Assembly (NCBI GenBank): GCA_003354025.1 | Contig: PIVU01000003.1 | Coordinates: 1 to 51,618, forward strand | Direction: 5' to 3' | Length of the DNA: 51,618 nt | From: Nitrospirota bacterium | Lineage (GTDB): Bacteria > Nitrospirota > Thermodesulfovibrionia > UBA6902 | Part shown: positions 8,932 to 29,621 of the stretch, piece by piece | How the letters are laid out: each line of letters begins with the position of its first letter | Numbering within the stretch: position 1 is the first letter of the stretch | The notes under the pieces: model-generated | Database searches by the model: none | The model's input: the letters and a program-made list of their open reading frames with translations, nothing else | What the model was told of the DNA's origin: nothing | Program-made: the position numbers and the translations under genes

Positions 8932-9960
8932 ATGAAACTTAGTGAACTGGCCAGGCATATAGGTGGTGACATTATAGGGGACCCGGAAATTGAGATTACG
9001 GGAGTATCAGGAATCACGGAAGCTCAAACTGGAGACATCTCCTATATTCACGACAAGAAATTCTTAAAAGATCCTTCTGCAATACGTGCGTCGGCAGTAA
9101 TAGTCAAAGAGGTTGCTGAAGGGTTGCCAATTAGCATGCTTGTGGTCAAAAACCCTCAGTATACTTATGCAAAAGCACTGGAAGTTTTCTACATAAAACC
9201 ACATGCATGTACGGGAATCAGCGATAGAGCTTTTATAGGAGACAATGTAACTCTGGGCAGCGAGGTCTCAGTCCATCATTTTGCATGCATACGCGACGGT
9301 GTCGTGATTGGTTCCGGGGGAACAATATTCCCGGGGGTGTTTATAGGTAAAGGAGTCACTATTGGTGATAATGCTCTTATCTATCCAAATGTCACGATCA
9401 GAGGGAATACAAAAATTGGAAATAATGTGACCATTCATTCCGGGACAGTCATCGGATCAGACGGGTTTGGATATGTCATGGAGCAGGGTATGCATTATAA
9501 GATACCGCAGGTCGGAGGTGTTGTTGTTGAAGACAACGTTGAAATCGGCTCCAATGTAACCATTGACAGGGGTACAACCGGAAACACAATAATAGGAACG
9601 GGTACAAAAATTGATAATCTTGTACAAATTGCCCATAATGTGAAAATAGGCAGCCACTCAATTATCGTTTCGCAGGTCGGAATCAGCGGAAGCGTTGATA
9701 TTGGAAACAGCGTAATACTGGCCGGTCAAGTGGGAGTCAGAGATCATATTACTATAGGCAATAATGCGATCATAGGCGCACAATCCGGAATAGGCGGCAA
9801 TATTCCGGAAGGCCAGGTTTATTCCGGAAGCCCTGCCATTCCGCACAAATCATGGTTAAGAGCTCAAAGCATCTATGCGAAATTGCCTGAGTACATCAAG
9901 CGCATACAGGCACTTGAAAGAAAATTGGATAACTTAACCGGAACTAAACAGGACACATGA
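8932..9960 (+). CDS. lpxD: UDP-3-O-acylglucosamine N-acyltransferase
   Basis: 342 aa. N-terminal MKLSELA..I.G domain followed by a long run of hexapeptide (left-handed beta-helix) repeats. Confidence 0.92.
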   Translation: MKLSELARHIGGDIIGDPEIEITGVSGITEAQTGDISYIHDKKFLKDPSAIRASAVIVKEVAEGLPISMLVVKNPQYTYAKALEVFYIKPHACTGISDRAFIGDNVTLGSEVSVHHFACIRDGVVIGSGGTIFPGVFIGKGVTIGDNALIYPNVTIRGNTKIGNNVTIHSGTVIGSDGFGYVMEQGMHYKIPQVGGVVVEDNVEIGSNVTIDRGTTGNTIIGTGTKIDNLVQIAHNVKIGSHSIIVSQVGISGSVDIGNSVILAGQVGVRDHITIGNNAIIGAQSGIGGNIPEGQVYSGSPAIPHKSWLRAQSIYAKLPEYIKRIQALERKLDNLTGTKQDT

Positions 9961-10078
9961 TAAACCTGCGTAAGGGCAATTCATGAATTGCCCCTACAAA
10001 TGATAATTGCCTTAATTGTAAAGGTATTATGTAGTTGTATACTCGTATTGAACTTAATAATTCTAGGAGGACTTTCAG

Positions 10079-10519
10079 ATGATGAATATCTTGGAAATTC
10101 AAAAAATGCTGCCCCACAGATATCCTTTTCTGCTTGTGGACAGGATTCTTGAAATAGAGCCCAATGTAAAAGCGGTGGGAATAAAAAATGTAACCTATAA
10201 CGAACCTTTTTTTCAGGGACATTTCCCGGACAATCCAATAATGCCGGGGGTATTGATTGTTGAAGCTATGGCCCAGGTATCAGGAATTCTTTCAATTCAG
10301 TCAGGTGCCACAGGGAATACCATTTATTTCATGAGCATTGAAAAAGCCAAATTCAGAAAACCTGTTGTTCCGGGAGACCAGCTGCGATTTGAAGTGTCCG
10401 TTCTTCAGCATCGAAATAAAGTGTGGAAATTTACAGGACAGGCCCTTGTAGATGGCAAACTTGTAGCAGAAGCTGAATTTACAGCAATGCTAAGTGACGA
10501 GGTGCGTGATAATGGCTAA
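10079..10519 (+). CDS. fabZ: 3-hydroxyacyl-ACP dehydratase FabZ
   Basis: [13 protein letters not shown]...[25 protein letters not shown] is the canonical FabZ signature. AGGAGG 8 nt upstream. Confidence 0.95.
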
Positions 10520-11291
10520 ACCGAAAATTCACAAAACAGCGATCGTCGCAGCAGATGCAAAGCTTGCAGAAGGCGTGGAAATCGGCCCTTTTTGTATTAT
10601 TGGTAAACGGGTAAAAATTGGTAAAAATACTAAACTTCAGTCTCACATTGTTATAGAAGAAACTGAAATCGGCAGTGATTGTACTATCTTCCCCTTCACT
10701 TCTATCGGGCTCCCGCCGCAGGACACCAGATATGAAAATGAAAGAACAAAAGTAAAAATAGGAAAGAACAATATAATACGTGAATATATAACTATTCATC
10801 GTGCATCCGTGGGCGGCAATAAAATTACCAGGATAGGCAACAGCAACTTTCTCATGGCATATGCTCATATTGCTCATGACTGCAATATCGGCAATAACAT
10901 AATCATAGCAAATGCTACAACTCTGGCAGGTCATGTTGAAATAGAAGATCATGCATTTATCGGCGGGATGGTTGCCATCCACCAGTTTACGAGAATAGGC
11001 GCATACTCAATGATAGGGGGCTTCAGCGCCATAACGCAGGACATTCCTCCCTTTACAACAGCATCGGGAGACAGGGCCAAACTCTACGGATTAAACACTG
11101 TAGGGCTTAAACGCCTTGAATTCGATGATTCAGTAATCCGAGGCCTTAAAAAGGCATATAAAACGGTATTCCGCAGCAAGCTTACTCTTAAAGATGCTCT
11201 CAAGAAATTAAAGGCCGATGACAAACAACCTGAAGAAGTAGAGTTGTTTATTGAGTTTATAGAAAAAAATACCCGGGGAATATGCCGTTAA
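10512..11291 (+). CDS. lpxA: UDP-N-acetylglucosamine (or UDP-GlcNAc3N) O/N-acyltransferase LpxA
   Basis: Hexapeptide-repeat N-terminus plus an LpxA-type helical C-terminus (LKRLEF..., IRGLKKAYK). ATG at 10512 (MAKPKIH) overlaps the fabZ stop (ATGGCTAA). Confidence 0.9.
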
Positions 11292-12121
11292 AGGCCCGGC
11301 GACCTGCCGGTAATCTCGGATTAATTGCTGGAATGGGTGACCTGCCCAAGGCAGTAGCATCTGAAGCAAAGAGAATGGGTTATCATGTGGTGGCCGTTGC
11401 GCTTCAACCTCCTGCAGACGAATCGCTTAAGCCCTTTGCGGACGATTTCCATAAAGTCAGCATAGGCCGTCTCGGAGGACTGATCGCCCTGTTGAAAAAG
11501 ATGTCTGTTACAGAAGCTGTAATGGCGGGTAAAGTTCCCAAAGGCCTCCTTTATAAAAACAAAAAAGACATCGTCCCCGATTTAACGATGGCAAAGGTCT
11601 TATTCTCATTAAAAAACCGTTCCGATGACACTATTATGAACGGAATTGTAGGTGAGCTGGAAAAAAACGGAATCACACTACACAAGACCACCACATTTAC
11701 AAAAGGCCTTCTCTGCCCGGAAGGGCTATTGACCCGTAAAAAACCGTCCAAAAAAGAATTGCAGGACATAGAGTATGGATGGCATATCGCAAAAGAGATG
11801 GGTAGACTGGATATAGGGCAGACAGTTGTGGTAAAAAACATGGCTGTAATGGCCATAGAAGCAATTGAAGGGACTGACGAAGCCATTAAGCGCGGGAGCG
11901 AACTTGCTCAAAAAGATGCCGTCGTTATTAAGGTAAGCAAACCAAGCCAGGACATGAGATTTGATGTGCCTGTTTTAGGCCTTGACTCACTGGATTCAAT
12001 GAAAACATCAGGGGCAAAAGTCCTCGCTTTTGAGGCCGGTAAATGTATTATAGTTGACAAGGAAAACTTCATAAAAAAGGCAGATAAAAATGGTTTTGTC
12101 GTGGTAGCTGTAAAAAAATGA
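11282..12121 (+). CDS. lpxI: UDP-2,3-diacylglucosamine pyrophosphatase LpxI (DUF1009 family)
   Basis: LGLIAGMGDLP N-terminus and IEAIEGTDEAIKRG motif. Sits immediately after lpxA, as described for LpxI-type lipid A clusters. Confidence 0.8.
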   Translation: MPLKARRPAGNLGLIAGMGDLPKAVASEAKRMGYHVVAVALQPPADESLKPFADDFHKVSIGRLGGLIALLKKMSVTEAVMAGKVPKGLLYKNKKDIVPDLTMAKVLFSLKNRSDDTIMNGIVGELEKNGITLHKTTTFTKGLLCPEGLLTRKKPSKKELQDIEYGWHIAKEMGRLDIGQTVVVKNMAVMAIEAIEGTDEAIKRGSELAQKDAVVIKVSKPSQDMRFDVPVLGLDSLDSMKTSGAKVLAFEAGKCIIVDKENFIKKADKNGFVVVAVKK

Positions 12122-12179
12122 ACTCAGGCGGAATATACATCGGGCAATGCCATTGCAGATCCATGGAAGACAGGACAAT

Positions 12180-13094
12180 ATGATTAATGTAGCTGTTATT
12201 GGTACCGGTTCAATAGGCAGACACCATGCTAGAATTTTTGCAGGTATTGAGGGCGTAAATCTGGTAGCCATAGTTGACACTGATTCAGCCAGAGCACAGG
12301 AACTTGCTGCCCAATATAACTGCGAAGCGCTTAGCAATTACAAAGATGTAATGAATTCTGTCGATGCCGCAAGTATTGCTGTGCCTACTACTTTGCATTT
12401 TCAAATAGGCATGGATTTTCTCAAAAACAACAAAGACCTGCTGATTGAAAAGCCTATTACAACAACTATCGAAGAAGCACGGGCACTCATTGAAGAGGCT
12501 GAAAGAAGAAACCTTATACTGCAGGTAGGACACCTGGAAAGGTTCAATTCAGGAGTTTCACTGGTAAGCAAGATGGTTGAAAAACCTCAGTTTATTGAAT
12601 CACAGCGCCTTTCTCCATTTTTGGGAAGAGGAACCGATGTTGATGTAACACTTGACTTAATGATACATGACATAGATATAATACTTAGCTTAGTAAATTC
12701 TGAGATATCCGATCTTCGGGCAACAGGGGCCAAAGTTCTTACGGAAAATATTGACGTAGCTCATGCCTGGATTGAATTCAAAAACGGCTGTATAGCCGAA
12801 GCAGTTACGAGCAGAATTGCAAATGACAAAATACGACAGTTAAAAATATTTCAACACAACTCATTTTTAGACCTTGACTATCAACGTCAGGAAATTGTGA
12901 GTCACACAAAGAAAGGCGATTCTATAGGTAAAGAGATTATAAAACCGCAGGAAAAAGAGCCGCTTAAGGAGCAGTTGTTGTCCTTTATTGAATGCGTAAG
13001 CAACAGAACACGTCCTGTCGTTTCCGGCTTAGAAGGCAAGGAAGCCCTGAAAGTAGCATTAAAAGTGTCCGGTTTAGTTAATCTCAGCCTATAA
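12180..13094 (+). CDS. Gfo/Idh/MocA-family NAD-dependent sugar oxidoreductase, GnnA-like (putative UDP-GlcNAc 3-dehydrogenase)
   Basis: Rossmann N-terminus INVAVIGTGSIGRHHA and an EKP motif (LLIEKPIT). Lies between lpxI and a DegT-type aminotransferase. Start moved to the ATG at 12180 (MINVAVIG). Confidence 0.65.
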   Translation: MINVAVIGTGSIGRHHARIFAGIEGVNLVAIVDTDSARAQELAAQYNCEALSNYKDVMNSVDAASIAVPTTLHFQIGMDFLKNNKDLLIEKPITTTIEEARALIEEAERRNLILQVGHLERFNSGVSLVSKMVEKPQFIESQRLSPFLGRGTDVDVTLDLMIHDIDIILSLVNSEISDLRATGAKVLTENIDVAHAWIEFKNGCIAEAVTSRIANDKIRQLKIFQHNSFLDLDYQRQEIVSHTKKGDSIGKEIIKPQEKEPLKEQLLSFIECVSNRTRPVVSGLEGKEALKVALKVSGLVNLSL

Positions 13095-13109
13095 ACTCAT
13101 ATAGTTACT

Positions 13110-14231
13110 ATGACCCAAACAGCTCAAAACAAGACAATGATCCCCATGCTGGATCTCAAAGCTCAGTATCTCCCAATTAAAGAAGAGATTAAATCAGCAG
13201 TTAAGGAAATAATCGAGAGCGGCAGATTTATTCTCGGCAAAAATGTCGAATCATTTGAAAATGAAATTGCATCTTACCATAATGTCAGCGGAGCCGTTGG
13301 ACTTGCTTCCGGCACAGACGCTCTTCATCTCAGCCTCAATGCAATGGACATTAAAGAAGGGGACGAGGTAATAACAACTCCCTTTACATTTATTGCATCG
13401 GCAGAATCTATAGCATATGTCCATGCAACACCCGTATTTGTCGACATAGAGAAAAATACACTCAATATTGATGTCTCTAAAATAGAAGAAAAAATCACAG
13501 CAAAAACTAAAGCCATTGTAGTTGTACACCTTTTTGGACTTCCGGCAAACATGACAGAAATCATGGAGTTAGCAAAGAAGTACAATTTAAAAATCGTTGA
13601 AGACTGCGCCCAGGCTTTCGGTGCTAAGTATAAGGACAGGGCAGTCGGGAGTATAGGGGACTGCGGCTGTTACAGTTTTTACCCCAGTAAGAATCTGGGT
13701 GCCTATGGTGATGGCGGAATGATGATAACAAATAATTCAGGCATCCATGAAACGGTTAAGCTGCTGCGTAACCACGGGACAGTGGGCCCTTACCAGCACG
13801 GTTTCATCGGTTTTAACAGCAGACTGGATGAAATCCATGCTGCTATACTCAGGATTAAGTTAAGGCACATCGATCAGTACAATCAAAACAGAGGCAAAAT
13901 TGCTAAAATCTATTCATCAATTCTGGGTAATGCCGTGAAATGTCCCGTTGAGCTGGAAGACAGGAGTCATGTATATCACCAATACACAATCAGAACTCCG
14001 CAAAGGGACAAAATCCATGAAATTTTAAAGGAAAACTCGATAGCATCTGTTGTGTATTACCCTCTTTCACTTCACCTTCAGGAAGCCTTTGGCTACTTAG
14101 GGTACAAAGAGGGAGATTTTCCGGAATGCGAAGCTGCTTCCAACGAGGTACTGTCCCTTCCAATTTATCCGGAACTGGAACCTGAAAAAGCAGAATATAT
14201 TGCAAAAACAGTTCTAGAGGCGGTAAAGTAA
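13110..14231 (+). CDS. DegT/DnrJ/EryC1-family PLP sugar aminotransferase, GnnB-like
   Basis: 373 aa with GTDALHLSL, FYPSKNLGAYGDGG (PLP lysine) and LPIYPEL motifs typical of the family. Confidence 0.8.
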   Translation: MTQTAQNKTMIPMLDLKAQYLPIKEEIKSAVKEIIESGRFILGKNVESFENEIASYHNVSGAVGLASGTDALHLSLNAMDIKEGDEVITTPFTFIASAESIAYVHATPVFVDIEKNTLNIDVSKIEEKITAKTKAIVVVHLFGLPANMTEIMELAKKYNLKIVEDCAQAFGAKYKDRAVGSIGDCGCYSFYPSKNLGAYGDGGMMITNNSGIHETVKLLRNHGTVGPYQHGFIGFNSRLDEIHAAILRIKLRHIDQYNQNRGKIAKIYSSILGNAVKCPVELEDRSHVYHQYTIRTPQRDKIHEILKENSIASVVYYPLSLHLQEAFGYLGYKEGDFPECEAASNEVLSLPIYPELEPEKAEYIAKTVLEAVK

Positions 14232-16311: not shown

Positions 16312-17076
16312 ATGCACTCCCTCGAAGGCAAAGTTGCTCTAATCACAGGAAGCTCAAGAGGCATCGGTCAGGCTATTGCAAGAAAACTCGCTGCCGCCGG
16401 TGCCGACATTGTTATTAACTACAGAAGGACTGCGGGCTCTTCATTCGCCCAGGCTGAAGAGCTCAACAAAGAGATCGAGGCAATGGGAAGAAAAACTCTT
16501 ATGGTCCAGGCTGACATATCGGAGAAATCCTCTGTTAAAACTCTGTTCGCCAAAATAAGTGAAACCTTCGGCACACTTGACTACCTCATCTTGAATGCAG
16601 CCAAGGCCCCTTTCAAGCCTATCGAAAAACTACTGGAGAGAGAACTTAGGCAGCTCGTTGAAACTAACTATATGGGTAATATTTTTTGTATTCAGGGGGC
16701 TATCCCTCTAATGGAGGCTAAGGGAGGCAGGATTGTATTTATATCAAGTCTTGGAAGCCGTTATTATAACCCCTCCTACCCACTGGGAAGCATGAAAGCG
16801 GCAATGGAATCAATTGTCAGAGACTGTGCAGAAAGTCTCAGAGAAAAAAAGGTGTCTGTAAATGCCGTCTGCGGCGGAATTGTCAAGACCGATTCCTTCA
16901 AAGTTTTAAGACAGTATCTTGAAAATGTTGACAAACTGCCCGATGACCTTATTGTTACCCCCGATGAAATTGCAGATGTTGTATCGTTTCTCTGTTCACC
17001 GGCAAGCAGAGGGATCACTGGCCAGACTATTGTTGTTGATAAGGGGCTGAGCAACTCTCTTTACAGGTCAGCTTAA
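16312..17076 (+). CDS. SDR-family reductase resembling FabL-type enoyl-ACP reductase
   Basis: ITGSSRGIGQA...IVINY, LNAAKAPFKP (in place of NNAG), ISSLGSRYYNPSYPLGSMKAAMES, VNAVCGGIVKTD and GQTIVVDKG. This layout parallels Bacillus FabL as I recall it, not classical FabG. Confidence 0.55.
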   Translation: MHSLEGKVALITGSSRGIGQAIARKLAAAGADIVINYRRTAGSSFAQAEELNKEIEAMGRKTLMVQADISEKSSVKTLFAKISETFGTLDYLILNAAKAPFKPIEKLLERELRQLVETNYMGNIFCIQGAIPLMEAKGGRIVFISSLGSRYYNPSYPLGSMKAAMESIVRDCAESLREKKVSVNAVCGGIVKTDSFKVLRQYLENVDKLPDDLIVTPDEIADVVSFLCSPASRGITGQTIVVDKGLSNSLYRSA

Positions 17077-17184: not shown

Positions 17185-17748
17185 ATGAGTCAGAACATAG
17201 TAACCGAGGAAAAAGTATTTGAAGAACTGAAAAAGGCAATAGTGGAAACTCTCAGGGTTGACGCTGATTCAATTAAACCCGAAAGTTCGTTAATCAATGA
17301 TCTGGGGGCTGAGTCACTGGACTTCCTTGATATTAATTACAGACTGGAGCAGGCCTTTGGGATGAAAATGGCCCGTCACTTCGTGCTTGAGCATGTAGAA
17401 GAGATGTTCGGTGAAGGTTCAGCTATTGATGATGACGGTCAGCTGACCGAAAAAGCCGTAGAACTCCTCAAAATACGCTTCGGGGACCAAATGGGCCCAC
17501 TCGAGCCGGGCATGGACATGGACGAGGTACCTGCCCTGGTCACTGCCCAGTCAATCTCAGGCGGAGTCATGGACATACTGGCAAGTCTTCCGGAAAAATG
17601 CACTCACTGCGGCGCACAGCAATGGACCTCCGAAGACGGGATCAAAATCAAATGCGGCTCATGCGGAGAACCGGCTGTTTTCAGTAACGGAGATGACTTA
17701 ATCAAGGATTGGCTGACAAAAGTCCAGGAAGAGAAAAAGATATTCTAA
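17185..17748 (+). CDS. Acyl carrier protein domain fused to a C-terminal CxxC-x14-CxxC zinc ribbon
   Basis: NDLGAESLDFLDINYRLEQAFG is an ACP helix-II motif, with Ser44 at codon 17314-17316. The C-terminus EKCTHCGAQQWTSEDGIKIKCGSCGEP carries Cys139/142/157/160. GGAGG lies upstream of the ATG. Confidence 0.75.
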   Translation: MSQNIVTEEKVFEELKKAIVETLRVDADSIKPESSLINDLGAESLDFLDINYRLEQAFGMKMARHFVLEHVEEMFGEGSAIDDDGQLTEKAVELLKIRFGDQMGPLEPGMDMDEVPALVTAQSISGGVMDILASLPEKCTHCGAQQWTSEDGIKIKCGSCGEPAVFSNGDDLIKDWLTKVQEEKKIF

Positions 17749-19037
17749 ATAATACATCCAAAAAAAGAGTTGTAATTACCGGATACGGGATGATTACGCC
17801 TTCAGGCAGGAATACCGAAGAGACCTTTGAGAATTGCAGCAAGGGCCATTCCGGGATAGATTATATTAAATCATTTGATACAACAGGAATGCCGTGCCGG
17901 ATCGGTGGAGAAGTCAACAACAGCTGGCTTGAGGATTTTGAACAGCAGACAGACCGTTCACTGAATAATTATTCTTCACGGGCATTAAGATTAATGAGAG
18001 TAGCAACAACTGAAGCTCTTCAGAAGGCCAAACTGGACGAAGTAGAAGACCGTCACTCAATTGGTGTTGCACTGGGCTCTCACGGTGACAACCTCCCTGT
18101 AAAGGACATGCAGTTCATTCATAAGTTTTACCGGGGTGAAGGGCGCTGGGACATGAAGAAACTTGCTGAATCAGGCGGCTACCCTTACCTGAATTTCTTC
18201 AGAAGAAAGCCTGATGCCGCATCAACTATACTGGCATCTTTTTTTAACTGTAAAGGACCCTCTCTTGCTATAGTATCAGCCTGTGCAGCCGGCTCACAGG
18301 CTATAGGGGAAGCCGTAAGGTTAATTCAGGACAGTAAATGCAAAGTAATGATTGCAGGTGGATGTGAAGCAACTCTTGATTTTGTGGGGATGACCGGTTT
18401 TATCCTGCTGAAGGCCCTGTCCGAAAAATATACGGAGCCGCAAAAAGCGTCACGGCCTTTTGACCGAAGGAGAAATGGGTTTGTCATGTCCGAAGGGGCC
18501 GGTTCAGTAGTTCTGGAGGAACTGGACCATGCTCTGTCACGGGGAGCTCACATATTCGGAGAATTAAAAGGGTACGGCTCCTCTGCCGATGCCTACCGGA
18601 TTACGGACACTCACCCAAAAGGAGTGGGAGCTGTTACTGCAATGACTGCAGCCATTGGTGACGCATCCTTAACACCTGATGATATTGATTATATAAATGC
18701 ACATGGGACCTCAACAACTCAGAATGACCTAACTGAAACCAGGGCAATAAAAGAAGTTTTTGGAGAAAAAGCAGGAGACATTCCGATAAGTTCAAATAAA
18801 TCCATGCTGGGCCATACTATAGCCGCAGCCGGTGCTATCGAATGTATACTTACATTAGAAGGAATTAATCAGTCTATTGTCCTCCCTACAATCAACCAGG
18901 AAGTGCGTGACCCAAAGTGCAAACTGGACTACGTTCCAAACACTGCACGCAAAATGGATCATAATACAGCAATATCCAATTCTTTTGGATTTGGCGGGCA
19001 AAACGCCTGTCTCTGCATCAGCAAATTTAAAGACTAG
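17709..19037 (+). CDS. Beta-ketoacyl-ACP synthase, FabF/KAS II-like (intact Cys-His-His triad)
   Basis: VSACAAGSQAIG (Cys), INAHGTSTTQND (His), SNKSMLGHTIAAAG (His) and NSFGFGGQNA. The start is uncertain: the only in-frame start upstream of VVITGYG is TTG at 17709, which overlaps the ACP gene by 40 nt. Confidence 0.85.
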   Translation: MADKSPGREKDILNNTSKKRVVITGYGMITPSGRNTEETFENCSKGHSGIDYIKSFDTTGMPCRIGGEVNNSWLEDFEQQTDRSLNNYSSRALRLMRVATTEALQKAKLDEVEDRHSIGVALGSHGDNLPVKDMQFIHKFYRGEGRWDMKKLAESGGYPYLNFFRRKPDAASTILASFFNCKGPSLAIVSACAAGSQAIGEAVRLIQDSKCKVMIAGGCEATLDFVGMTGFILLKALSEKYTEPQKASRPFDRRRNGFVMSEGAGSVVLEELDHALSRGAHIFGELKGYGSSADAYRITDTHPKGVGAVTAMTAAIGDASLTPDDIDYINAHGTSTTQNDLTETRAIKEVFGEKAGDIPISSNKSMLGHTIAAAGAIECILTLEGINQSIVLPTINQEVRDPKCKLDYVPNTARKMDHNTAISNSFGFGGQNACLCISKFKD

Positions 19038-19119: not shown

Positions 19120-19461
19120 TTAATGAATGCTTTCTCTATCCATGTCCTGCAGGAATTCATGATATGCAGTAGTCGGATCTAATATTTTCATTCCAACAGT
19201 CAAAGTTTCGTCATCAGGAGCAGTCCGCAAGTACCACTTCACTTCACAGTTTAGATATAGTATCTTGCCTGAGGGAGTTTGAAAACTAAGTGTGATTATC
19301 CTCTCGGGCACAAAATCTATTGAAGATCTGATTGCCGATGTCATTAAATACTCAATACCATCCTCGGATACATTGTCAATAAATCCACCACATGATTTGC
19401 CGCCTGATATAATGTTAGCGTTAAGATTACAAATCATTCTGTTTGACTGCCGATTGTCCAC
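19120..19461 (-). CDS. Stand-alone PilZ-domain protein (putative c-di-GMP receptor)
   Basis: 113 aa with RQSNR (RxxxR) and NVSEDG (D/N-x-S-x-x-G) at canonical spacing. GTG start with GAGG about 9 nt upstream. Confidence 0.7.
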   Translation of the reverse strand: MDNRQSNRMICNLNANIISGGKSCGGFIDNVSEDGIEYLMTSAIRSSIDFVPERIITLSFQTPSGKILYLNCEVKWYLRTAPDDETLTVGMKILDPTTAYHEFLQDMDRESIH

Positions 19462-19726: not shown

Positions 19727-20044
19727 TTAGTTCACAACGATTTTACCCTTAATTTTCTCAAAAGTCTTCTTTGCAATCCCCTCCACTTTCCTAAGGTCGT
19801 TAATGTCGCTAAAATTACCGTTATTGTTTCTATAGTTAATGATCGCCTCTGCCTTCTTCTTTCCAATACCCGAAAGTATTGTGAGTTCCTTAACTGTGGC
19901 AGTATTAATATTGATTGAAGTGTCCACGACTTGACTGTTTGATTCGGTGTGCTTATTCTCTACTGCCACTGACGTCGACACAAATATGCCGGCCATCATA
20001 AAAACTGCAATGATAATGCACATTCTTGATAATACTTTTTTCAT
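19727..20044 (-). CDS. comEA: ComEA-like helix-hairpin-helix DNA-binding protein with signal peptide
   Basis: INTATVKELTILSGIGKKKAEAIINYRNNNGNFSDINDLRKVEGI is the ComEA HhH signature. AGGAGG lies upstream of the ATG. Confidence 0.8.
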   Translation of the reverse strand: MKKVLSRMCIIIAVFMMAGIFVSTSVAVENKHTESNSQVVDTSININTATVKELTILSGIGKKKAEAIINYRNNNGNFSDINDLRKVEGIAKKTFEKIKGKIVVN

Positions 20045-20475
20045 AACATCCTCCTGGTTTTAAAGATTAGTAATCCATTTGAAATTTACAGCTCTGAAGT
20101 CATCACCTCCTTTCTGATATTTCAGGAAAACATCGGACAAGACAAGCAAATGCATAGCAGTATCGGGCAAGGTTTCACAGCATAAAAATGTTCAACCGGT
20201 GCCAAATCCACACAGATCATTCTTGTTTCCGTCAGATAAACTCTAAACGGAAAATGGTTGCATTTGAAAATTACGCGGCTTGTCAGCCCTGTCCCCAACA
20301 GATGCTAAAGTATATATAAAAGAACGCAGAATGTCCAGCAAATCTCCATGATTTAAGTTCATTGAATTAGATGGAACATATATAGAGATTCAGCCCATTT
20401 CTCGTCGAAAAATGCATTGCAACTAACCCTCCGATATTGCATCGTTTATCATCCATCCTGTATCATGTTCTAATC

Positions 20476-21750
20476 ATGAATGAACAGGTCGTAATTACAG
20501 GAGCAGGAATGGTAAACGCTCTCGGCAGAAGTTTACCTGCATCGTGGGACAAACTGGCTTCGGGGAAATGCGGTATCCGTTCCATAGAAAGCTTTAACGC
20601 AAAGGGCCTTAATTGCACTGCAGCAGCAGAGGTAAATGACCTGAACGCTGAAGAGTTAAACGTACATCCGAGAGATTCTCGAATCATGGACAAGCATGCC
20701 TACATGCTGCTTAAAGCATCGCGCGAATCTTTCAGTCATGCAGGACTTGATAAAGCATCTGTAGACCCGAATAATATCGGTTATTTCGCATCTATGGGGA
20801 TGGTAGACTACAACCTGGAAGATCTTCTACCGTCAGTGCTAAAGTCACTTGATGATAAGGGGAACCTGGATTACGACAAATTCTATTCCGGTGCATACCA
20901 GGAGATTCATCCTCTATGGCCTCTGTCAATGCTAAATAACATAAATTTCTGCCAGGTAGCCATTGACCTTGGTATCAGGGGAGAGAATACAACATTCGCA
21001 CCCCATTCCGATTCGGCTATACATTCAATAATTGAAGCATACAATGCAGTTCTAGAGAAACAAGCTGAAGTTATTCTGGCCGGAGGAGTCAGTGAAAAAG
21101 TATCTCCCTCCAGCCTGGCACGTGCTTCAATGGCCGGGATTCTAAACAGTAATGACATATCATGCCGGCCTTTTGGTAAAAACAGCACAGGAACAATGCT
21201 GGGAGAAGGATGCGGCATAATAACGATAGAACTGCTTTCACATGCAATAGCCAGACAAGCGCCATGCCTTGCCAGAATATCCGGTTACGGCTCCTCTTTT
21301 GGATCGTCAGACATCAGCAATTCCGCTACTTCAGCAGCAATATCACTTTCAATGGAAACAGCGCTTGAAAAAGCAGAGCTTAAGCCCGGGGATATAGACC
21401 TTATCATCGCCCACGGCGACGGGGCCCCGGAAGGGGATGCAAATGAAGCTGAAGCTATTCATAATACCTTCGCTGGTTGCCTGAATACCTTACATGTGTA
21501 TTCCTCAAAAGCCGCCCTTGGGCATCTATTGTCCGGCGCATCCGCAGTAGACGTAGTTATCGGAACTAATATACTGATAAATGGTATAATTCCAGCGATT
21601 TTCGATTCAGGGCCGCTTGAAGATAATATTGCATTAAATCTTGTCAGAGGGGACCCTCTTAAAGCCGACCCGGCACGGATAATGATTAATTCCCGGAGCT
21701 ATGAAGGACAGTGCGCTTCGCTGATAATTGAAAAGTGGATTGACGAATGA
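20476..21750 (+). CDS. Ketosynthase-family protein with active-site Cys replaced by Ser (CLF-like or decarboxylating KS)
   Basis: VVITGAGMVNALG N-terminus. Aligned on the AGG anchor against the two neighbouring KS genes, the catalytic Cys position is Ser191 of the long ORF (TCC at 21007-21009; context FAPHSDSAIHS). Both His motifs are kept (IIAHGDGAPEGD, SSKAALGHLLSGAS). Start set at the ATG at 20476 (MNEQVV). Confidence 0.75.
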   Translation: MNEQVVITGAGMVNALGRSLPASWDKLASGKCGIRSIESFNAKGLNCTAAAEVNDLNAEELNVHPRDSRIMDKHAYMLLKASRESFSHAGLDKASVDPNNIGYFASMGMVDYNLEDLLPSVLKSLDDKGNLDYDKFYSGAYQEIHPLWPLSMLNNINFCQVAIDLGIRGENTTFAPHSDSAIHSIIEAYNAVLEKQAEVILAGGVSEKVSPSSLARASMAGILNSNDISCRPFGKNSTGTMLGEGCGIITIELLSHAIARQAPCLARISGYGSSFGSSDISNSATSAAISLSMETALEKAELKPGDIDLIIAHGDGAPEGDANEAEAIHNTFAGCLNTLHVYSSKAALGHLLSGASAVDVVIGTNILINGIIPAIFDSGPLEDNIALNLVRGDPLKADPARIMINSRSYEGQCASLIIEKWIDE

Positions 21751-21799
21751 AAATAGTTATTCAACATATCTCTCGTCATTAATTTGTAATTGTTTTATT

Positions 21800-22255
21800 A
21801 TGCGTTTTCTATACTACGATACAGTCGATAAAATCGAAAAAGGAAAAACAATTGTGGGAGCAAAGACCTTCACGTTATCTGAGGAGTTCTTTAAAAAGCA
21901 CTTTCGCAAACAAGCTCTCGTCCCAGGTATTATTTATATTGAAGCAATGGCACAGCTCCTGGGCTGGCTTGTCATATACACCCATGATTTCAAACTCTCT
22001 GCAGTCATGTCTCTGGTTGAAGACGTAGACATTGCCCCTGACCTGAGGCCTGGTTTTAAAGCGGAAATTCATGGAGAAATAATATCAACATCACGCAGAG
22101 ACTCCCTGGGTAAAGCATGGATAACAGTGGACGGGAAAACCATCGCTTCCGTAAACCGGATCATTTACAGTCACGTTCACAAAGTCAATTCTCAGGACCT
22201 TATGAATCTCTTTTACTATTACAGCGGGATTAAGGCTGATCTCAATGAGCAGTAA
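21800..22255 (+). CDS. FabZ/FabA-like hot-dog fold dehydratase
   Basis: EEFFKKHFRKQALVPGIIYIEAMAQLLG parallels the housekeeping FabZ motif [25 protein letters not shown] in this same window. Start set at the ATG at 21800 (MRFLYYD). The stop overlaps the next KS start. Confidence 0.75.
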   Translation: MRFLYYDTVDKIEKGKTIVGAKTFTLSEEFFKKHFRKQALVPGIIYIEAMAQLLGWLVIYTHDFKLSAVMSLVEDVDIAPDLRPGFKAEIHGEIISTSRRDSLGKAWITVDGKTIASVNRIIYSHVHKVNSQDLMNLFYYYSGIKADLNEQ

Positions 22256-23531
22256 GCACAGAGTTGTTATCACAGGACTAGGCATGGCAACGTCACTGGG
22301 CACCACTGTAGATGAAAACTGGAGTAAAGCCCTTGAAGGTCAATCGGGCATTAAAGAGCTTTCACTGCCGAACACAGAGAAGTCACCTGTCAGGGCGGTT
22401 GGAAGTGTTGCCCTAAGGGACTGGCAAAAGATCCAGGCAGCGTTCCCTGGAGAAGCTGCTCAGGAAGGTGAGCGGAGAACCCTCTTTGCTTTATGGTCAG
22501 CAATGTCAGCATTAGACGATGCCGGTTTAACAAAATATGACGGCCCAAAAGACCGTTTTGGTGTCGTGCTTGCAGCAGGCCTCGGCATAAACAGACTGGA
22601 AGATATTCACCGATGGACCAACCAAAACAAAGAGTTCGACCTCGAGAAATTCGGCAAAGAGTATAAAGACATACACTCTGAATCCCTGATGAAAAACAAC
22701 GCCCACAGGCCCGCCGCACTTATAGCAAAAAAATACGGATTGAATGGATACAACTCCACCATAACAACAGCGTGCGCATCGGCTACACAGGCCATCGGCA
22801 CTGCTTACCGTTCGATTTATCGGGGAGATTCGGACATGATCGTTTCAGGAGGAGCAGACTCCATGATCAACCCTGTGGGCCTCATATTTTTTGTTCTGCT
22901 CAGTGCGGCTGCCGTATCAAAGGACAATCCATCGGAAATCTGCAGGCCCTTTGACAGGAAAAGATCTGGCCTTGTTATGGGTGAAGGATCAGGTATGGTT
23001 GTGCTGGAAGAAGAATCTCACGCACTGAAGAGGGGTGCAAAAATATACGCTGAAGTATCAGGATACGCTTCAACTATGGACGCTTACAAAGTAACGGCGC
23101 CTCATCCAAAAGGTATCGGCGCCGAACGTGCCATGATAAACGCCCTTAAAGATGCGGACATGGCCCCTGATGAAATAGATTATATTAATGCCCACGGCAC
23201 TAGTACAAAACTGAATGATTCAGCGGAAACACTGGCAATAAAAAATGTGTTTAAAGATCATGCCCGTAATTTATCAGTAACCTCAAGCAAAGCTCTCATA
23301 GGACATTTACTGGCAGCTTCCGGAGGGCCTGAGTTTGTCTTTACGGCATTGACTGTTAACAGGGACGAAATTCACCCGACTATTAATCAGCATAATCCTG
23401 ATCCGAAGTGCGATCTTGATTATGTTCCCAATATCAAAAAATCTGCTGCCGTGAGGGCCGCAATTTCAAATTCATTCGGTTTTGGTGGACAGAACGGGTC
23501 AATTGTTGTCAAAAAATATGGATCGAGTTAG
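22245..23531 (+). CDS. Beta-ketoacyl-ACP synthase, FabF-like (intact triad)
   Basis: TTACASATQAIG (Cys), INAHGTSTKLND, SSKALIGHLLAASG and NSFGFGGQNG. Confidence 0.88.
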   Translation: MSSKHRVVITGLGMATSLGTTVDENWSKALEGQSGIKELSLPNTEKSPVRAVGSVALRDWQKIQAAFPGEAAQEGERRTLFALWSAMSALDDAGLTKYDGPKDRFGVVLAAGLGINRLEDIHRWTNQNKEFDLEKFGKEYKDIHSESLMKNNAHRPAALIAKKYGLNGYNSTITTACASATQAIGTAYRSIYRGDSDMIVSGGADSMINPVGLIFFVLLSAAAVSKDNPSEICRPFDRKRSGLVMGEGSGMVVLEEESHALKRGAKIYAEVSGYASTMDAYKVTAPHPKGIGAERAMINALKDADMAPDEIDYINAHGTSTKLNDSAETLAIKNVFKDHARNLSVTSSKALIGHLLAASGGPEFVFTALTVNRDEIHPTINQHNPDPKCDLDYVPNIKKSAAVRAAISNSFGFGGQNGSIVVKKYGSS

Positions 23532-23576: not shown

Positions 23577-24329
23577 ATGAAAATAGATTTAACAGGCAAA
23601 GTAGCACTTGTCACAGGGGCATCAAGGGGGATAGGACGGGCCACGAGCATCATGCTGGCCAAGGCAGGAGCTTCCGTAATTATTAATTACGTCAAGTCTG
23701 CTGAAAAAGCTGAGGAAGTAAAAAACGAGATCTCCGGTACCGGTGGTACGGCAGATATTTTTCAGGCCGATGTCTCTAAGCCCGAAGATGTAAAAGCCCT
23801 ATTCGAATTTATAACAGGAAAATATAACAGGCTGGATATACTTGTAAACAATGCCGGTGTTATAAAGGACAACCTTCTTATTGCAATGAAACTCAAGGAT
23901 TGGGACAGGGTTATTGATACAAATTTAAAGGGTGCATTTCTTTGTTCACAGCAGGCTGCGGAAATTATGATGGCAAATCACTCAGGGAAAATCATTAATG
24001 TTTCATCAATAGGCGCTATCAGGGGAGGACGGGGTCAAACCAACTATTCATCTGCAAAAGGCGGTCTCATGTCATTCACAAAAGCATGCGCTGTAGAACT
24101 TGCATCAAAGGGGATTCAGGCAAACGCAGTACTGCCGGGCATGATCGTAACCGACATGAGTGTCCGGGCTAGAAAAAGGGCCGGAGATAAAATACTTGAA
24201 CGAATCCCTGCAGAAAAGTTCGGCGAACCCGATGACATAGCCGCCATGATCGTATTCCTGGCTTCGAAACATGCAGATTATATTACCGGGCAGACCATAT
24301 CCATCGACGGAGGGATGGGGATTTCGTAA
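23577..24329 (+). CDS. fabG: 3-oxoacyl-ACP reductase (FabG-type SDR)
   Basis: VTGASRGIGRA, NNAGV, SSIGAIRGGRGQTNYSSAKGG (S...YxxxK) and ITGQTISIDGG. The symbol denotes the family. This may be a pathway-specific paralogue. Confidence 0.85.
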   Translation: MKIDLTGKVALVTGASRGIGRATSIMLAKAGASVIINYVKSAEKAEEVKNEISGTGGTADIFQADVSKPEDVKALFEFITGKYNRLDILVNNAGVIKDNLLIAMKLKDWDRVIDTNLKGAFLCSQQAAEIMMANHSGKIINVSSIGAIRGGRGQTNYSSAKGGLMSFTKACAVELASKGIQANAVLPGMIVTDMSVRARKRAGDKILERIPAEKFGEPDDIAAMIVFLASKHADYITGQTISIDGGMGIS

Positions 24330-24372: not shown

Positions 24373-25077
24373 TTACCAAACTGGACGATAGAATAAATTA
24401 AGGATTATCGCACGGATGATCCTGTACCCTACAATTGCAATACCCTTAACATCACCTGTGAACTTTGATTTGCCGGTACCCATACGATAACTAACAGGTA
24501 CTTCTTTTATTTTAAAATTGCACCTGACAGCCTTAACCTGCATTTCTATTGTCCATCCAAGGTTATCATGCATATCCAGAGTCAGCAGTTTATCAAACTT
24601 AACAGCCCTGAATGGCCCCACATCAGTATATTTGAATCCATAAAACAATCTCATCAATACAGTTGCCAGCCAGTTTCCGAAGCGCACCGGAACTCTAAGC
24701 GAGCCCTCTTCAGCTTCTCCCAACACTCTGGAGCCGCAGACAAGATCATAGCCTTCATTGACCATAGGTTCAACGAGCTTAATTATTTCAGTGGGGTAGT
24801 CACTATAATTACCATCAAGAAAAACAACGATATCCGGCTTGCTCATTTTCAGGTATTCAATACCCTTCAGGCACGGATAACCATAACCCTTTTTCGACTC
24901 GTTTAAAAGTGTTGCGCCCCACTCTTTTACAACCTGAGGAGTCCTGTCGGTGCTGCCGTTGTCAATCACGACAACTTCATCAATTAAATCCCCTGGGATG
25001 TCATTAAGAACAAGAGAAATCGTCTCTTCTTCATTCAACACCGGTATTATGGCAGCTATTGTTTTATTATTTAACAT
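24373..25077 (-). CDS. Small soluble-type family 2 glycosyltransferase (polyprenyl-phosphate/GtrB-like catalytic domain, no C-terminal TM helices)
   Basis: AAIIPVLNEEE..., VVVIDNGSTDRT and FLDGNYSD (DxD-like) motifs. 234 aa. Confidence 0.75.
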   Translation of the reverse strand: MLNNKTIAAIIPVLNEEETISLVLNDIPGDLIDEVVVIDNGSTDRTPQVVKEWGATLLNESKKGYGYPCLKGIEYLKMSKPDIVVFLDGNYSDYPTEIIKLVEPMVNEGYDLVCGSRVLGEAEEGSLRVPVRFGNWLATVLMRLFYGFKYTDVGPFRAVKFDKLLTLDMHDNLGWTIEMQVKAVRCNFKIKEVPVSYRMGTGKSKFTGDVKGIAIVGYRIIRAIILNLFYRPVW

Positions 25078-25243
25078 TTGACCTGTTTTGATCGTTTCTT
25101 CACTATATTATACTTTGGCTGGGAATAAAGATGTTTTTGCTACAATTATTACTATTCCACCTTATGCTAAAGGGACCTGCCTAGCTCCGGAAGTCTCTCT
25201 TTACTTGATTTTATTTTTTGCTCTATGGTATTTTTATAAGCCC

Positions 25244-27622
25244 ATGCATAGCAAATCCCGTTTATATTCAGCACTGCTTATTTTATCAATTGCAACTCTG
25301 ACATTGGAAGTGCTCCAGCTTCGTATCTTTGCATACAGCCTGTTGCGGTCTCTGGCACATGTTGTGGTCAGCATCGTTCTTATGGGAATTGGTATAGGGA
25401 GTATAAGTATTGCTCTTTCCTCCAAAATCAACCGAATCAAAGAAGAAACGCTGCTAACCTATTTATTCATGGGCTTTTCTATAAGCATAATGGTTACTCA
25501 TTTGATATTCAGCCATTATTTTCAATGGATTAACCAGGGATATAATTTCCCCAGATTATGGCTTTTCTCCATAATTTTCAGCGTACCATATATCTTTTTC
25601 GGCGCAATACTTACATATGTTTTCAAAAAATATGTACAGGATGTACCGAAACTCTACTCATTAAACCTGATCGGTTCAGGGTTAGGCTGTATAATACCGC
25701 TGATTGCATTACGTCCCCTTGGGGCAGAAAATTTAATCGTGCTGGTAGCTTTTCTGGGGGCGCTGTGCTCTCTGCTTTATTTTCGTGACATACCAAAAAA
25801 ACTTGGCCTGACTGCCGCAATTTTTACTATATTAATATTATTCAGCTTTCCATTCTCCGGCGATCTTTTTGATTTTAAATCAAAAGCCAATGGAGGCCTC
25901 GCAAAGATGAAAAATGCCACCAAAGTAAAAAGGGAATTTTCTAAATGGGATCCCCTGGGTAAAATCGAGGTTTATTCCTTTAATGATGATTACTCATATA
26001 TGTACATGCCGGAAGCCGTGCCTATCAAGGCAATGTTCCAGGACGGGGATGCAGGCTCCATGCTTGTTAATATTCGTAAAGACAAATATGATTATACAAA
26101 TTTCTTTGACGGCAGCATATTCAGTCTTGTTTATCAACTTCGCAACAACTCGGAAACACTGGCAATCGGACTGGGAGGTGGCCATGATATAATGAGGGCT
26201 TCCTACTTTAAAAGCAGCAGGGTAACCGGAGTGGAAATAAACAGCACTACCGTCAAACTTGTTAAAGAATCCTTCAAAGACTTCCTGGGAGACCCCTACG
26301 GCAAAGAGAATGTATCTATTGTTAATATGGACGGCAGATATTTTGTCAAAGACAATAAGAAAAATTACGACATTATACAGATAGCCGGCGCTGACACCGA
26401 CACTTCCAATTTGACTTCCGGCGCCCTTTCCGTTTCTGAAAACTACCTCTATACCTCTGAGGCATTCAAAGACTATTTAAAGTCTTTAAAGCCTGACGGT
26501 ATTCTTTCCCTGATACGTTTCGGCCCAAGAGAACCTATGATCATTATATCTACGGCCCTTAAGGCAATGAATGAAATGGGAATCGTTAATCCATACAATA
26601 ATTTCATAGTAGTAAAACAAGCTATTAACGTCAATGTTTTGATGAAAAAAGTGCCTTTCAGTATTGATGAGATCAATATCGTAAGAAAGTTTGCGGACCG
26701 AGTGACAATAAGCTCTCAAAACCTCAGACTTCCTGTAAATGATGTAATAGGGTATGAGGCAATTAGTGACTCAGAGATCATGTACCTGCCCCTTCCCGGC
26801 TGGAATGCCCAGAATTCATTTACGGAAATCATGAATTCAGCCAGGTCGAATGAGATATCAAAATACGTGGCCGGCTTCCCTCAAAATATCGGGCCCCTGA
26901 CAGATAATATGCCCTTCTTTTTCCAATATGAGAAGCCAGAAAATATTTTCAAGTACAAGAACTCTGTTATTTATAATTTATTCGTATCCATTGTACAAAT
27001 CTTAATATTCTCAGTATTGCTAATCTTTTTGCCTGTCTATATTTTAAAAAGAAAACATATGAATATGAGGTACAACTTTAATTATATTATTTATTTTTTC
27101 AGCATAGGCATAGGATTTATGCTCATAGAAATCGGTTTAATTCAAAAAGCAGTTCTATTCCTTGGTCATCCGACTTACTCTTTCATTGCAGTAGTATTTT
27201 CAATACTATTGTTTTCGGGGCTTGGAAGTCTTTTTTCAGCATATTTCAACAAGAACATTTTCAAACTTGTAGTTATTAGTTTAAGCGCCGTAATCATTTT
27301 AACTCTTCTTTACCTGTTTTACATGGATGATTTACTTAATGCCATTCTGCCCGAAAACATGTATTTAAGAATGGTCATTATAGGCCTGTTTTTATCGCCT
27401 ATAGGGTTTGCTATGGGCATACCATTACCCAAAGGTATACAGATGGTCAGTGCAAAAGACAGCAATTTTATACCTGTAGCCATGGCTGTGAATAGTGTCG
27501 CATCGGTATTAGCCGCAGCGTCATCCCTGCCGTTTGCCATGTTGTATGGCTTTACCGCAATATTTCTAACTGCGATAACAGCATATATGACTGGTTTAAT
27601 AACCATCGCAATCAAAAGATAA
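25244..27622 (+). CDS. Polytopic membrane protein with a central spermidine-synthase-like (class I SAM/dcSAM-binding) domain
   Basis: N-terminal multi-TM region (LLILSIATLTLEVLQLRIF...). Central LAIGLGGGHDIMRA...VTGVEINSTTV...NMDGRYFV...YDIIQIAGADT...LYTSEAFKDYLKSLKPDGILSL matches the SpeE fold motifs. Additional C-terminal TM helices follow. The long ORF starts at 25088, only 10 nt from the divergent GT2, so I prefer the ATG at 25244. Confidence 0.7.
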   Translation: MHSKSRLYSALLILSIATLTLEVLQLRIFAYSLLRSLAHVVVSIVLMGIGIGSISIALSSKINRIKEETLLTYLFMGFSISIMVTHLIFSHYFQWINQGYNFPRLWLFSIIFSVPYIFFGAILTYVFKKYVQDVPKLYSLNLIGSGLGCIIPLIALRPLGAENLIVLVAFLGALCSLLYFRDIPKKLGLTAAIFTILILFSFPFSGDLFDFKSKANGGLAKMKNATKVKREFSKWDPLGKIEVYSFNDDYSYMYMPEAVPIKAMFQDGDAGSMLVNIRKDKYDYTNFFDGSIFSLVYQLRNNSETLAIGLGGGHDIMRASYFKSSRVTGVEINSTTVKLVKESFKDFLGDPYGKENVSIVNMDGRYFVKDNKKNYDIIQIAGADTDTSNLTSGALSVSENYLYTSEAFKDYLKSLKPDGILSLIRFGPREPMIIISTALKAMNEMGIVNPYNNFIVVKQAINVNVLMKKVPFSIDEINIVRKFADRVTISSQNLRLPVNDVIGYEAISDSEIMYLPLPGWNAQNSFTEIMNSARSNEISKYVAGFPQNIGPLTDNMPFFFQYEKPENIFKYKNSVIYNLFVSIVQILIFSVLLIFLPVYILKRKHMNMRYNFNYIIYFFSIGIGFMLIEIGLIQKAVLFLGHPTYSFIAVVFSILLFSGLGSLFSAYFNKNIFKLVVISLSAVIILTLLYLFYMDDLLNAILPENMYLRMVIIGLFLSPIGFAMGIPLPKGIQMVSAKDSNFIPVAMAVNSVASVLAAASSLPFAMLYGFTAIFLTAITAYMTGLITIAIKR

Positions 27623-29573: not shown

Positions 29574-29621
29574 AAATAACACTCCTTTTAATAGAATTTA
29601 CTTAAACATCGTTTTTATATT

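Follow-up and report, generated by a model that had tools for sequence, protein, structure and literature searches.

To our knowledge, the acyl carrier proteins (ACPs) described so far are metal-free helical bundles of about 80 residues. Here we describe a 187-residue ACP, which we call ACPzn, whose predicted fold includes a conserved four-cysteine ribbon. It is encoded on the forward strand at 17185..17748 of contig PIVU01000003.1 (assembly GCA_003354025.1), from a Nitrospirota bacterium of the Thermodesulfovibrionia; the whole stretch of 51,618 nucleotides that was analysed is referred to below as the window. The architecture of ACPzn and its conservation are well supported, and the genes that accompany it suggest a dedicated lipid pathway.

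The rhizobial very-long-chain fatty acid-lipid A cluster contains acpXL, fabZXL, fabF1XL and fabF2XL, along with lpxXL (PMC5613085). Like that system, the ACPzn operons at 14 loci pair a dedicated ACP with a FabZ-like dehydratase, at least two FabF-like ketosynthases (KSs) and an LpxL-family acyltransferase (PMC5613085), but in the ACPzn operon these are joined by a FabL-like reductase, FabG, AcpS and inactive partners of the KSs, and its hosts belong to other phyla. The carriers themselves also differ: ACPzn is twice as long as AcpXL and has additional helices, a helix at its C-terminus and the four-Cys ribbon. The best sequence match of ACPzn in the Protein Data Bank (PDB) is the AcpXL-type protein RPA2022 (2kw2/3lmo, E 4.4e-9), with the next at 2e-8. 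Given this marginal lead, and the differences in length and architecture, we do not regard ACPzn as an orthologue of AcpXL (about 92 residues). With canonical AcpP (PF00550, a four-helix bundle of about 80 residues) ACPzn shares helices I and II, the (D/E)SLD phosphopantetheine motif and its acidity (pI 4.4), but only about 60 ACPzn residues align and the other 125 have no counterpart.

Two further systems offer partial parallels. In the anammox ladderane cluster, according to a preprint, amxACP is preferred by a heterodimer of an active and an inactive FabF (amxFabF), similar to a KS/chain-length-factor (CLF) pair (bioRxiv 10.64898/2026.05.19.726425). ACPzn is comparable in that a pathway-specific ACP is combined with an active/inactive FabF pair in a cluster resembling type II fatty acid synthases (FAS-II); the anammox cluster differs in content (radical SAM), and the abstract of the preprint mentions no metal site for amxACP (bioRxiv 10.64898/2026.05.19.726425). 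In DUF35 proteins a rubredoxin-like zinc ribbon is a structural piece that touches condensing enzymes of the thiolase superfamily, as in thiolase/HMG-CoA synthase complexes (PMC12960953). DUF35 has no sequence relationship to ACPzn, has an OB fold and is not a carrier; any parallel with the ACPzn ribbon would be a mechanistic one.

Architecture and predicted fold of ACPzn

The ACPzn open reading frame (17185..17748, +) has an ATG start, 187 codons and a GGAGG sequence 6 bases 5' of the start, and it is supported as a gene by its translation, a Pfam PP-binding match, homologue searches and a structure prediction. The product is 20.7 kDa and acidic as a whole. Its translation contains DLGAESLD with Ser44 (codon 17314-17316), followed by FLDINYRLEQAFG. 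An earlier note on this DNA, made from the letters alone, had proposed an ACP-type start around Ser44 in a 187-residue protein, and this is borne out by the profile match, by the invariance of Ser44 among 41 aligned relatives and by an AcpS-type gene in the relatives' operon. Pfam PP-binding (PF00550) matches residues 14-70 with 32.4 bits against a cut-off of 20.8, and it is matched by 41 of the 42 members of A1, an alignment of ACPzn with 41 relatives that have two CxxC motifs (n=42, 23-66% identity). About 20 NCBIfam ACP models, among them the 93-residue PRK06508 model, all score ACPzn under their curated cut-offs (best 53.8 bits against 71). Together the Pfam and NCBIfam ACP models cover only residues 8-70 (model positions 2-57), and with A1 and superposition on PDB structures they delimit a canonical ACP part (17206..17367, +) consisting of helix I (residues 8-23), a loop and helix II (44-58).

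The C-terminal half of ACPzn matches no Pfam family. It contains all of the protein's cysteines, exactly four (C139, C142, C157 and C160; codons 17599-17601 to 17662-17664), arranged as CTHC-x14-CGSC with both knuckles reading CxxCG; a CxxC-x8-25-CxxC pattern arose in 11 of 200,000 shuffles of ACPzn. On the basis of A1, the shuffles and the independently collected loci described below, we define a zinc-ribbon module at residues 136-163 (17590..17673, +), which comprises P136, C139-x2-C142-G, strands 147-149 and 155-157, and C157-x2-C160-G.

AlphaFold2 (AF2), run with the 42-sequence alignment A1, returned a model with a mean local confidence (pLDDT) of 96.1 and a predicted TM score (pTM) of 0.90, in which every segment is confident. 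As modelled, ACPzn is one compact domain and not a series of beads on a string: ACP helices I and II are followed by further helices, a two-hairpin ribbon and a C-terminal helix. Helix II begins at Ser44, and the two short strands of the ribbon module lie between the Cys pairs. Residues 62-135 (17368..17589, +) had been taken in the earlier note for an acidic linker or insert, a description that the model contradicts, since they form confident helices (67-75, 89-103 and 121-132) inside the domain, with pLDDT of at least 93 in each 10-residue block; A1 and the sequences of ribbon-less relatives likewise mark this region as a structured elaboration. Nor does the protein end at the second knuckle, as had been stated, because 24 residues follow the end quoted there, including a G169-D170 turn and an amphipathic helix at 169-184 (17680..17745, +) that are indicated by AF2 and by conservation (G169 86% and D170 81% among the full-length relatives with two CxxC motifs).

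Residues 62-135 must hold counterparts of ACP helices III and IV as well as two additional helices. Sequence does not single out which is which: a spliced construct (1-62 + 109-135) and full ACPzn both score 37.4 bits against E. coli AcpP, and a further ambiguity is that by eye the region looks like the tail of AcpXL-type ACPs as well. A Foldseek search of the PDB with the model returned only ACPs (probability 1.00, 53-70 columns, query-normalised TM about 0.3), which superpose on the helix I/II part with root-mean-square deviations of 1.1-1.5 A over 53-58 columns. The longest alignment was with RPA2022, a specialised ACP of the AcpXL type (123 columns), and the search found no PDB structure with the whole ACPzn fold.

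Taken from the sequence and the model, the four-Cys ribbon most likely binds a structural Zn2+. An alternative is that it forms a rubredoxin-like iron centre and that ACPzn is a redox-active carrier, passing electrons, for example, to an enzyme that modifies the tethered chain. The CxxCG knuckles are as in rubredoxins, rubrerythrin rubredoxin-like domains give weak matches (one family member at E 0.0011; ACPzn itself at E 0.19 to RUBY_RBDX, below threshold), and a B12 radical SAM enzyme is encoded in the operons of Nocardia relatives. The 14-residue spacing of the knuckles and the two short hairpins nonetheless fit a zinc ribbon (the spacing in rubredoxin is about 29 residues), and Pfam finds no rubredoxin match in ACPzn or in the A1 members. 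More members match the TFIIB zinc-ribbon model Zn_Ribbon_TF, although also weakly (8 of 42, best E 1e-4), and no desaturase, oxygenase or radical SAM enzyme accompanies ACPzn in the core operon. We therefore think an iron centre very unlikely. Among curated zinc-ribbon families no match above cut-off was found for ACPzn or the 42 A1 members, and for ACPzn itself the signal was a sub-threshold one to Zn_ribbon_3 (E 0.12).

Conservation and distribution of the family

A single-sequence search with ACPzn against 5.8 billion proteins gave 731 matches. The best 120 of these are all about 187 residues long and 73-94% identical to ACPzn, mostly from metagenome-assembled genomes of Nitrospirota/Thermodesulfovibrionia, and conservation of Ser44 and of each of the four Cys in this set is 99% or higher. 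When 1.84 billion cluster representatives were searched exhaustively with HMMER, 143 proteins were identified at E <= 1e-10. Two CxxC motifs are present in 41 of the 56 near-full-length matches that have an ACP-like serine motif; of the remaining 15, most are calls that are truncated or frameshifted and a few have unrelated ACP architectures (tandem AcpXL-like, ribbon-less), while P0125, also in this group, is a variant with CxC in the first knuckle. A further protein, P0216, is an apparent C-terminal fragment with a ribbon that lacks its cysteines.

The 41 relatives in A1 were chosen for their two CxxC motifs, and the invariance of the cysteines in that alignment is thus partly circular. A1 is informative in other respects: the motifs occupy the same columns throughout, no residues other than Ser44 and Asp46 are invariant beyond the pre-selected cysteines, and G76 and T88 are almost invariant. 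Independent loci were obtained by scanning genomes with a pattern for the ACP part taken from a closer alignment, A2, with the cysteines ignored. Nearly all full-length ACPzn copies found in this way keep the four Cys. Rare variants are L022 and L023 (Planctomycetia), with CxC in the first knuckle, and a copy in L014 (8001-8567, NC10) that reads CSSG and has lost one Cys; the second knuckle is CxxC in each of these variants. The zinc-ribbon-like CxxC-x14-CxxC described in the earlier note consequently stands and is conserved; loss of the Cys pairs in homologues, which the note had named as grounds for rejecting it, is not what is seen. Retention of the site from 94% down to 23% identity and across six phyla suggests that it is under selection.

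Full-length ACPzn was found by the genome scan in Nitrospirota, Syntrophobacterales, NC10, Acidobacteriota, Planctomycetota and cultured Nocardia. With a family profile, 1979 proteins were found at E <= 1e-10; this figure takes in a ribbon-less group, class B. These are ACPs of about 130 residues, mainly from Planctomycetota and Verrucomicrobiota, that resemble ACPzn in how the chain is elaborated beyond helix II, down to the G-x-(L/V)-T motif and the final 'TV' helix, and have FabG, dehydratase (DH) and KS neighbours, but lack the cysteines, the ribbon and the C-terminal helix. Class B examples occur within loci L031-L081 (e.g. L038 8001-8480, and L078), many in a DH-FabG-ACP-(gap)-KS arrangement, and this form may be the main ACP of its hosts.

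Database entries call the homologues of ACPzn 'acyl carrier protein', 'phosphopantetheine-binding protein' or just 'hypothetical protein'. We found no dedicated Pfam or NCBIfam model and no solved structure for the family, and no paper on the ACP-zinc-ribbon architecture or its operon in the literature searched. Although its members are numerous, the family is thus not a commonly annotated one with a known function, in agreement with what had been suggested from the sequence. We regard it as large, unnamed and uncharacterised, and as novel in being an ACP whose predicted fold includes a conserved ribbon of the metal-binding type.

The ACPzn operon and its candidate pathway

ACPzn lies in a run of genes for fatty acid synthesis enzymes, all on the forward strand. 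Directly upstream is a short-chain dehydrogenase/reductase (SDR; 16312..17076, Pfam adh_short_C2), a putative enoyl-ACP reductase whose best NCBIfam model is FabL (222.5 bits, below the cut-off of 328; next model 159), and which keeps its place upstream of ACPzn at most class A loci other than those of Nocardia. Downstream is KS1 (17709..19037), a FabF-like ketosynthase by Pfam that passes an NCBIfam beta-ketoacyl-ACP synthase II subfamily (420.8 bits against 387). A TTG at 17709, its apparent start, is the sole canonical start before the conserved N-terminus, and from there KS1 overlaps the final 40 nt of ACPzn. In the KS1 frame the first canonical start after the ACPzn stop is a Met inside the conserved N-terminal strand, and in L003, L005, L010 and L011 the similarity to KS1 found by tblastn already starts 8-37 nt ahead of the ACPzn stop. 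Beyond it lie KS-like2 (20437..21750), a KS relative by Pfam with Ser in place of the catalytic Cys, a FabA/FabZ-like dehydratase (21728..22255; Pfam FabA, NCBIfam FabZ below cut-off), a second FabF-like ketosynthase, KS3 (22245..23531; Pfam, NCBIfam), and a FabG-type 3-oxoacyl-ACP reductase (23577..24329; Pfam, and NCBIfam FabG subfamily NF009466 with 247.9 bits against 222). Between KS1 and KS-like2 the window operon is split by a PilZ gene (19120-19461, -) and a helix-hairpin-helix (HhH) ComEA-like gene (19727-20044, -); the same operon genes are contiguous in L008, L009, L014, L018 and others.

We compared 83 related loci (L001-L083). The uninterrupted operon reads SDR(FabL-like)-ACPzn-KS1-KS-like2-DH-KS3-FabG-AcpS-DH2-KS4 and is present in Thermodesulfovibrionales, Syntrophobacteraceae, NC10, Acidiferrales and Planctomycetota; its transferase passes the AcpS model TIGR00516. 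Where the contig reaches far enough, the gene directly after ACPzn at almost all class A loci is a KS gene, the exceptions being L012 and L016, with the KS1 orthologue upstream and only a KS fragment downstream, and L033, with a dehydratase between ACPzn and the KS. Alignment of the active sites of orthologues shows that KS1 and KS3 retain the Cys-His-His triad. The catalytic Cys position of KS-like2, which is Ser in the window, is Ser, Ala or Gly among its orthologues and some copies lose a His; we therefore interpret KS-like2 as a probably inactive, CLF-like partner. The anammox ladderane clusters offer a comparable case in their inactive FabF. A distinct class of serine ketosynthase is rejected for this gene, which the earlier note calls 'KS-Ser', since the Ser is not conserved.

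That the serine is conserved and that the operon encodes an AcpS and all the enzymes of elongation together suggest that ACPzn is the carrier of a dedicated FAS-II-like line. The same complete elongation cycle and AcpS would also fit if ACPzn were the housekeeping ACP and its operon the main fatty acid synthase, and in many Planctomycetota class B sits in a FabG-ACP-KS order like that of fabG-acpP-fabF. Nonetheless, the NCBIfam AcpP models all score below cut-off, fabD, fabH and plsX are absent from the operons at L082 and L083, and a separate FabZ is encoded in the lpx cluster. The family is also patchy within phyla and occurs in Nocardia, where primary fatty acid synthesis is of another type. 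We therefore consider it very unlikely that ACPzn is the housekeeping ACP.

What the dedicated line might supply is suggested by two independent contexts that point to lipid A. One is the end of the operon: in the Pfam-annotated loci L082 and L083 it terminates in a PF03279 (Lip_A_acyltrans) gene, and tblastn places such a gene at the operon end in 14 class A loci altogether (L005, L008-L010, L012-L014, L016-L019, L023, L082 and L083), which span Nitrospirota, Desulfobacterota, NC10, Acidobacteriota and Planctomycetota. The best NCBIfam models for this acyltransferase are lipid A lauroyl acyltransferases, below their cut-offs. The other is adjacency to lpx genes: in the window, as in its nearest relatives, the SDR-ACPzn-KS1 trio adjoins lpxD-fabZ-lpxA-lpxI together with GnnA/GnnB-like genes, and in L001 and L083 it is also next to Mla genes. 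Because an LpxL-family gene ends the operon, lpx genes are adjacent, and the gene classes are the same as in the acpXL cluster, we favour a pathway making a specialised acyl chain that is destined for lipid A or for a similar glycolipid of the envelope. In our judgement it is fairly probable that ACPzn is the specialised carrier of a dedicated FAS-II-like pathway for envelope-lipid acylation, of the AcpXL/LpxXL kind.

In such a pathway Ser44 would be phosphopantetheinylated, in most relatives by the AcpS-type transferase of the operon. The operon enzymes would then build the acyl chain on ACPzn, using two active FabF-like KSs, one or two inactive CLF-like partners, FabA/Z-like dehydratases, the FabG ketoreductase and the FabL-like enoyl reductase. 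In most Gram-negative carriers of the operon the finished chain would pass to the LpxL/LpxXL-family acyltransferase and on to lipid A or a related envelope glycolipid. The extra helices, the ribbon and the C-terminal helix could reshape the acyl-binding side and provide a distinctive docking surface, such that the pathway enzymes, the adjacent KS first among them, might accept ACPzn and ignore the housekeeping ACP, and vice versa. As the KS core is the most consistently co-conserved partner, in Nocardia as elsewhere, we read the ribbon and extra helices as a surface or pocket fitted to that core; the ribbon probably sets partner specificity, and DUF35 proteins offer an analogy. The earlier note's suggestion that the module might dock the carrier to a KS or a membrane enzyme is plausible in view of the near-constant KS neighbour and of the LpxL-family acyltransferase gene at the operon end in many genomes.

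Several observations weigh against an envelope-lipid role. The likeness of ACPzn to AcpXL-type ACPs barely exceeds its likeness to ordinary ACPs. The AcpXL-type gene set is complete in the 14 related loci, but a search of the window for the AcpS, DH2, KS4 and LpxL-like acyltransferase genes of the long operon found none, and its operon is split by the two opposite-strand genes; the window lacks the acyltransferase and yet adjoins lpxD-fabZ-lpxA-lpxI. Finally, Nocardia, which has no lipid A, carries the ACPzn-KS core in another setting, so that lipid A itself cannot be what the family as a whole depends on. In the Nocardia loci (L025-L027, L029 and L030; e.g. L026 600-16000) an ACPzn-KS1-KS-like2-DH-KS3 core without the SDR or acyltransferase has as neighbours genes for a B12-binding radical SAM enzyme, AcpS, FabG, a class III aminotransferase, a methyltransferase, an FAD-binding enzyme and an AfsA-like protein, and looks like an uncharacterised biosynthetic gene cluster.

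The aminotransferase, methyltransferase, FAD enzyme, B12 radical SAM and AfsA-like genes of Nocardia would also be in keeping with an alternative in which ACPzn has the same carrier role for a different product. This would be a polyketide-like or specialised lipid, in the style of aryl polyenes and flexirubins or of a highly reducing type II polyketide synthase, with the LpxL-family enzyme anchoring it elsewhere than on lipid A and the Nocardia core making a secondary metabolite. Aryl-polyene gene sets likewise consist of a KS and inactive KS pair, two dehydratases, a ketoreductase and an acyltransferase, all of which have counterparts in the ACPzn operon. DH2 matches the Pfam ApeI-like family, and with the flexirubin FlxB model FabG reaches 244.7 bits against a cut-off of 340. 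A KS/CLF-like FabF heterodimer is likewise reported for the anammox ladderane cluster (bioRxiv 10.64898/2026.05.19.726425). Against this, the FabL-like enoyl reductase that heads the operon points to saturated chains, the Pfam-annotated operons L082 and L083 contain no aryl-starter ligase, thioesterase, or LolA-like or MMPL export gene, and the linkage to lipid A and Mla genes is recurrent. We consider a product of this kind unlikely.

Returning to the envelope-lipid pathway, a more far-reaching form of it can be put forward tentatively. ACPzn would be the first ACP with an obligatory metal site, its ribbon and extra helices serving as a specificity or chain-sheltering device for a second, orthogonal fatty acid synthase that delivers an unusual, probably very long chain to the LpxL-family enzyme. 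This would amount to an unrecognised modification of lipid A or another envelope lipid in Nitrospirota, Desulfobacterota, NC10, Acidobacteriota and Planctomycetota, with the carrier-KS core reused for secondary metabolism in Nocardia. If a conserved 187-residue metallo-ACP of this kind is confirmed, it represents a new way to make a carrier pathway-specific, which could be of use in engineering orthogonal fatty-acid or polyketide lines. ACPzn also marks a widespread, uncharacterised operon in environmentally important anaerobes and soil bacteria that probably alters an outer-membrane lipid, and so bears on membrane robustness and on lipid biomarkers. The presence of the family in Nocardia isolates means that a cultivable system may exist.

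Other genes of the window

The genes of the window are ordered as LeuRS (-), BamA and Skp, then LpxD, FabZ, LpxA, LpxI, a GnnA-like oxidoreductase and a GnnB-like aminotransferase, then an SLT/LysM transglycosylase (-), the FabL-like SDR, ACPzn, KS1, the PilZ (-) and HhH/ComEA-like (-) genes, KS-like2, the FabA/Z-like dehydratase, KS3 and FabG, which ends at 24329 and is followed by unrelated genes. The lipid A genes (8932..14231, +) lie outside the ACPzn operon and were identified by synteny and Pfam: LpxD and LpxA were assigned by tblastn synteny to L001, where Pfam matches to LpxD and to hexapeptide/Acetyltransf_11 were obtained, and the other window genes were scanned with Pfam directly. 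Their synteny is repeated in L001-L004 and L024. Adjoining LpxI within this cluster are genes for a GFO/IDH/MocA oxidoreductase and a DegT aminotransferase (12147-14231, +), which are GnnA/GnnB-like and suggest a 2,3-diamino-glucose lipid A backbone.

No RNA genes were revealed when the window was scanned with Rfam and for tRNAs. At 28584-29582 (-), between a TPR protein gene and a gene for a large membrane glycosyltransferase of family 2, is an open reading frame of 332 codons whose product has an apparent signal peptide and no Pfam match. Immediately after FabG, at 24373-27622, a glycosyltransferase family 2 gene (-) lies beside a gene for an 844-residue polytopic membrane protein with a spermine/spermidine-synthase-like domain.

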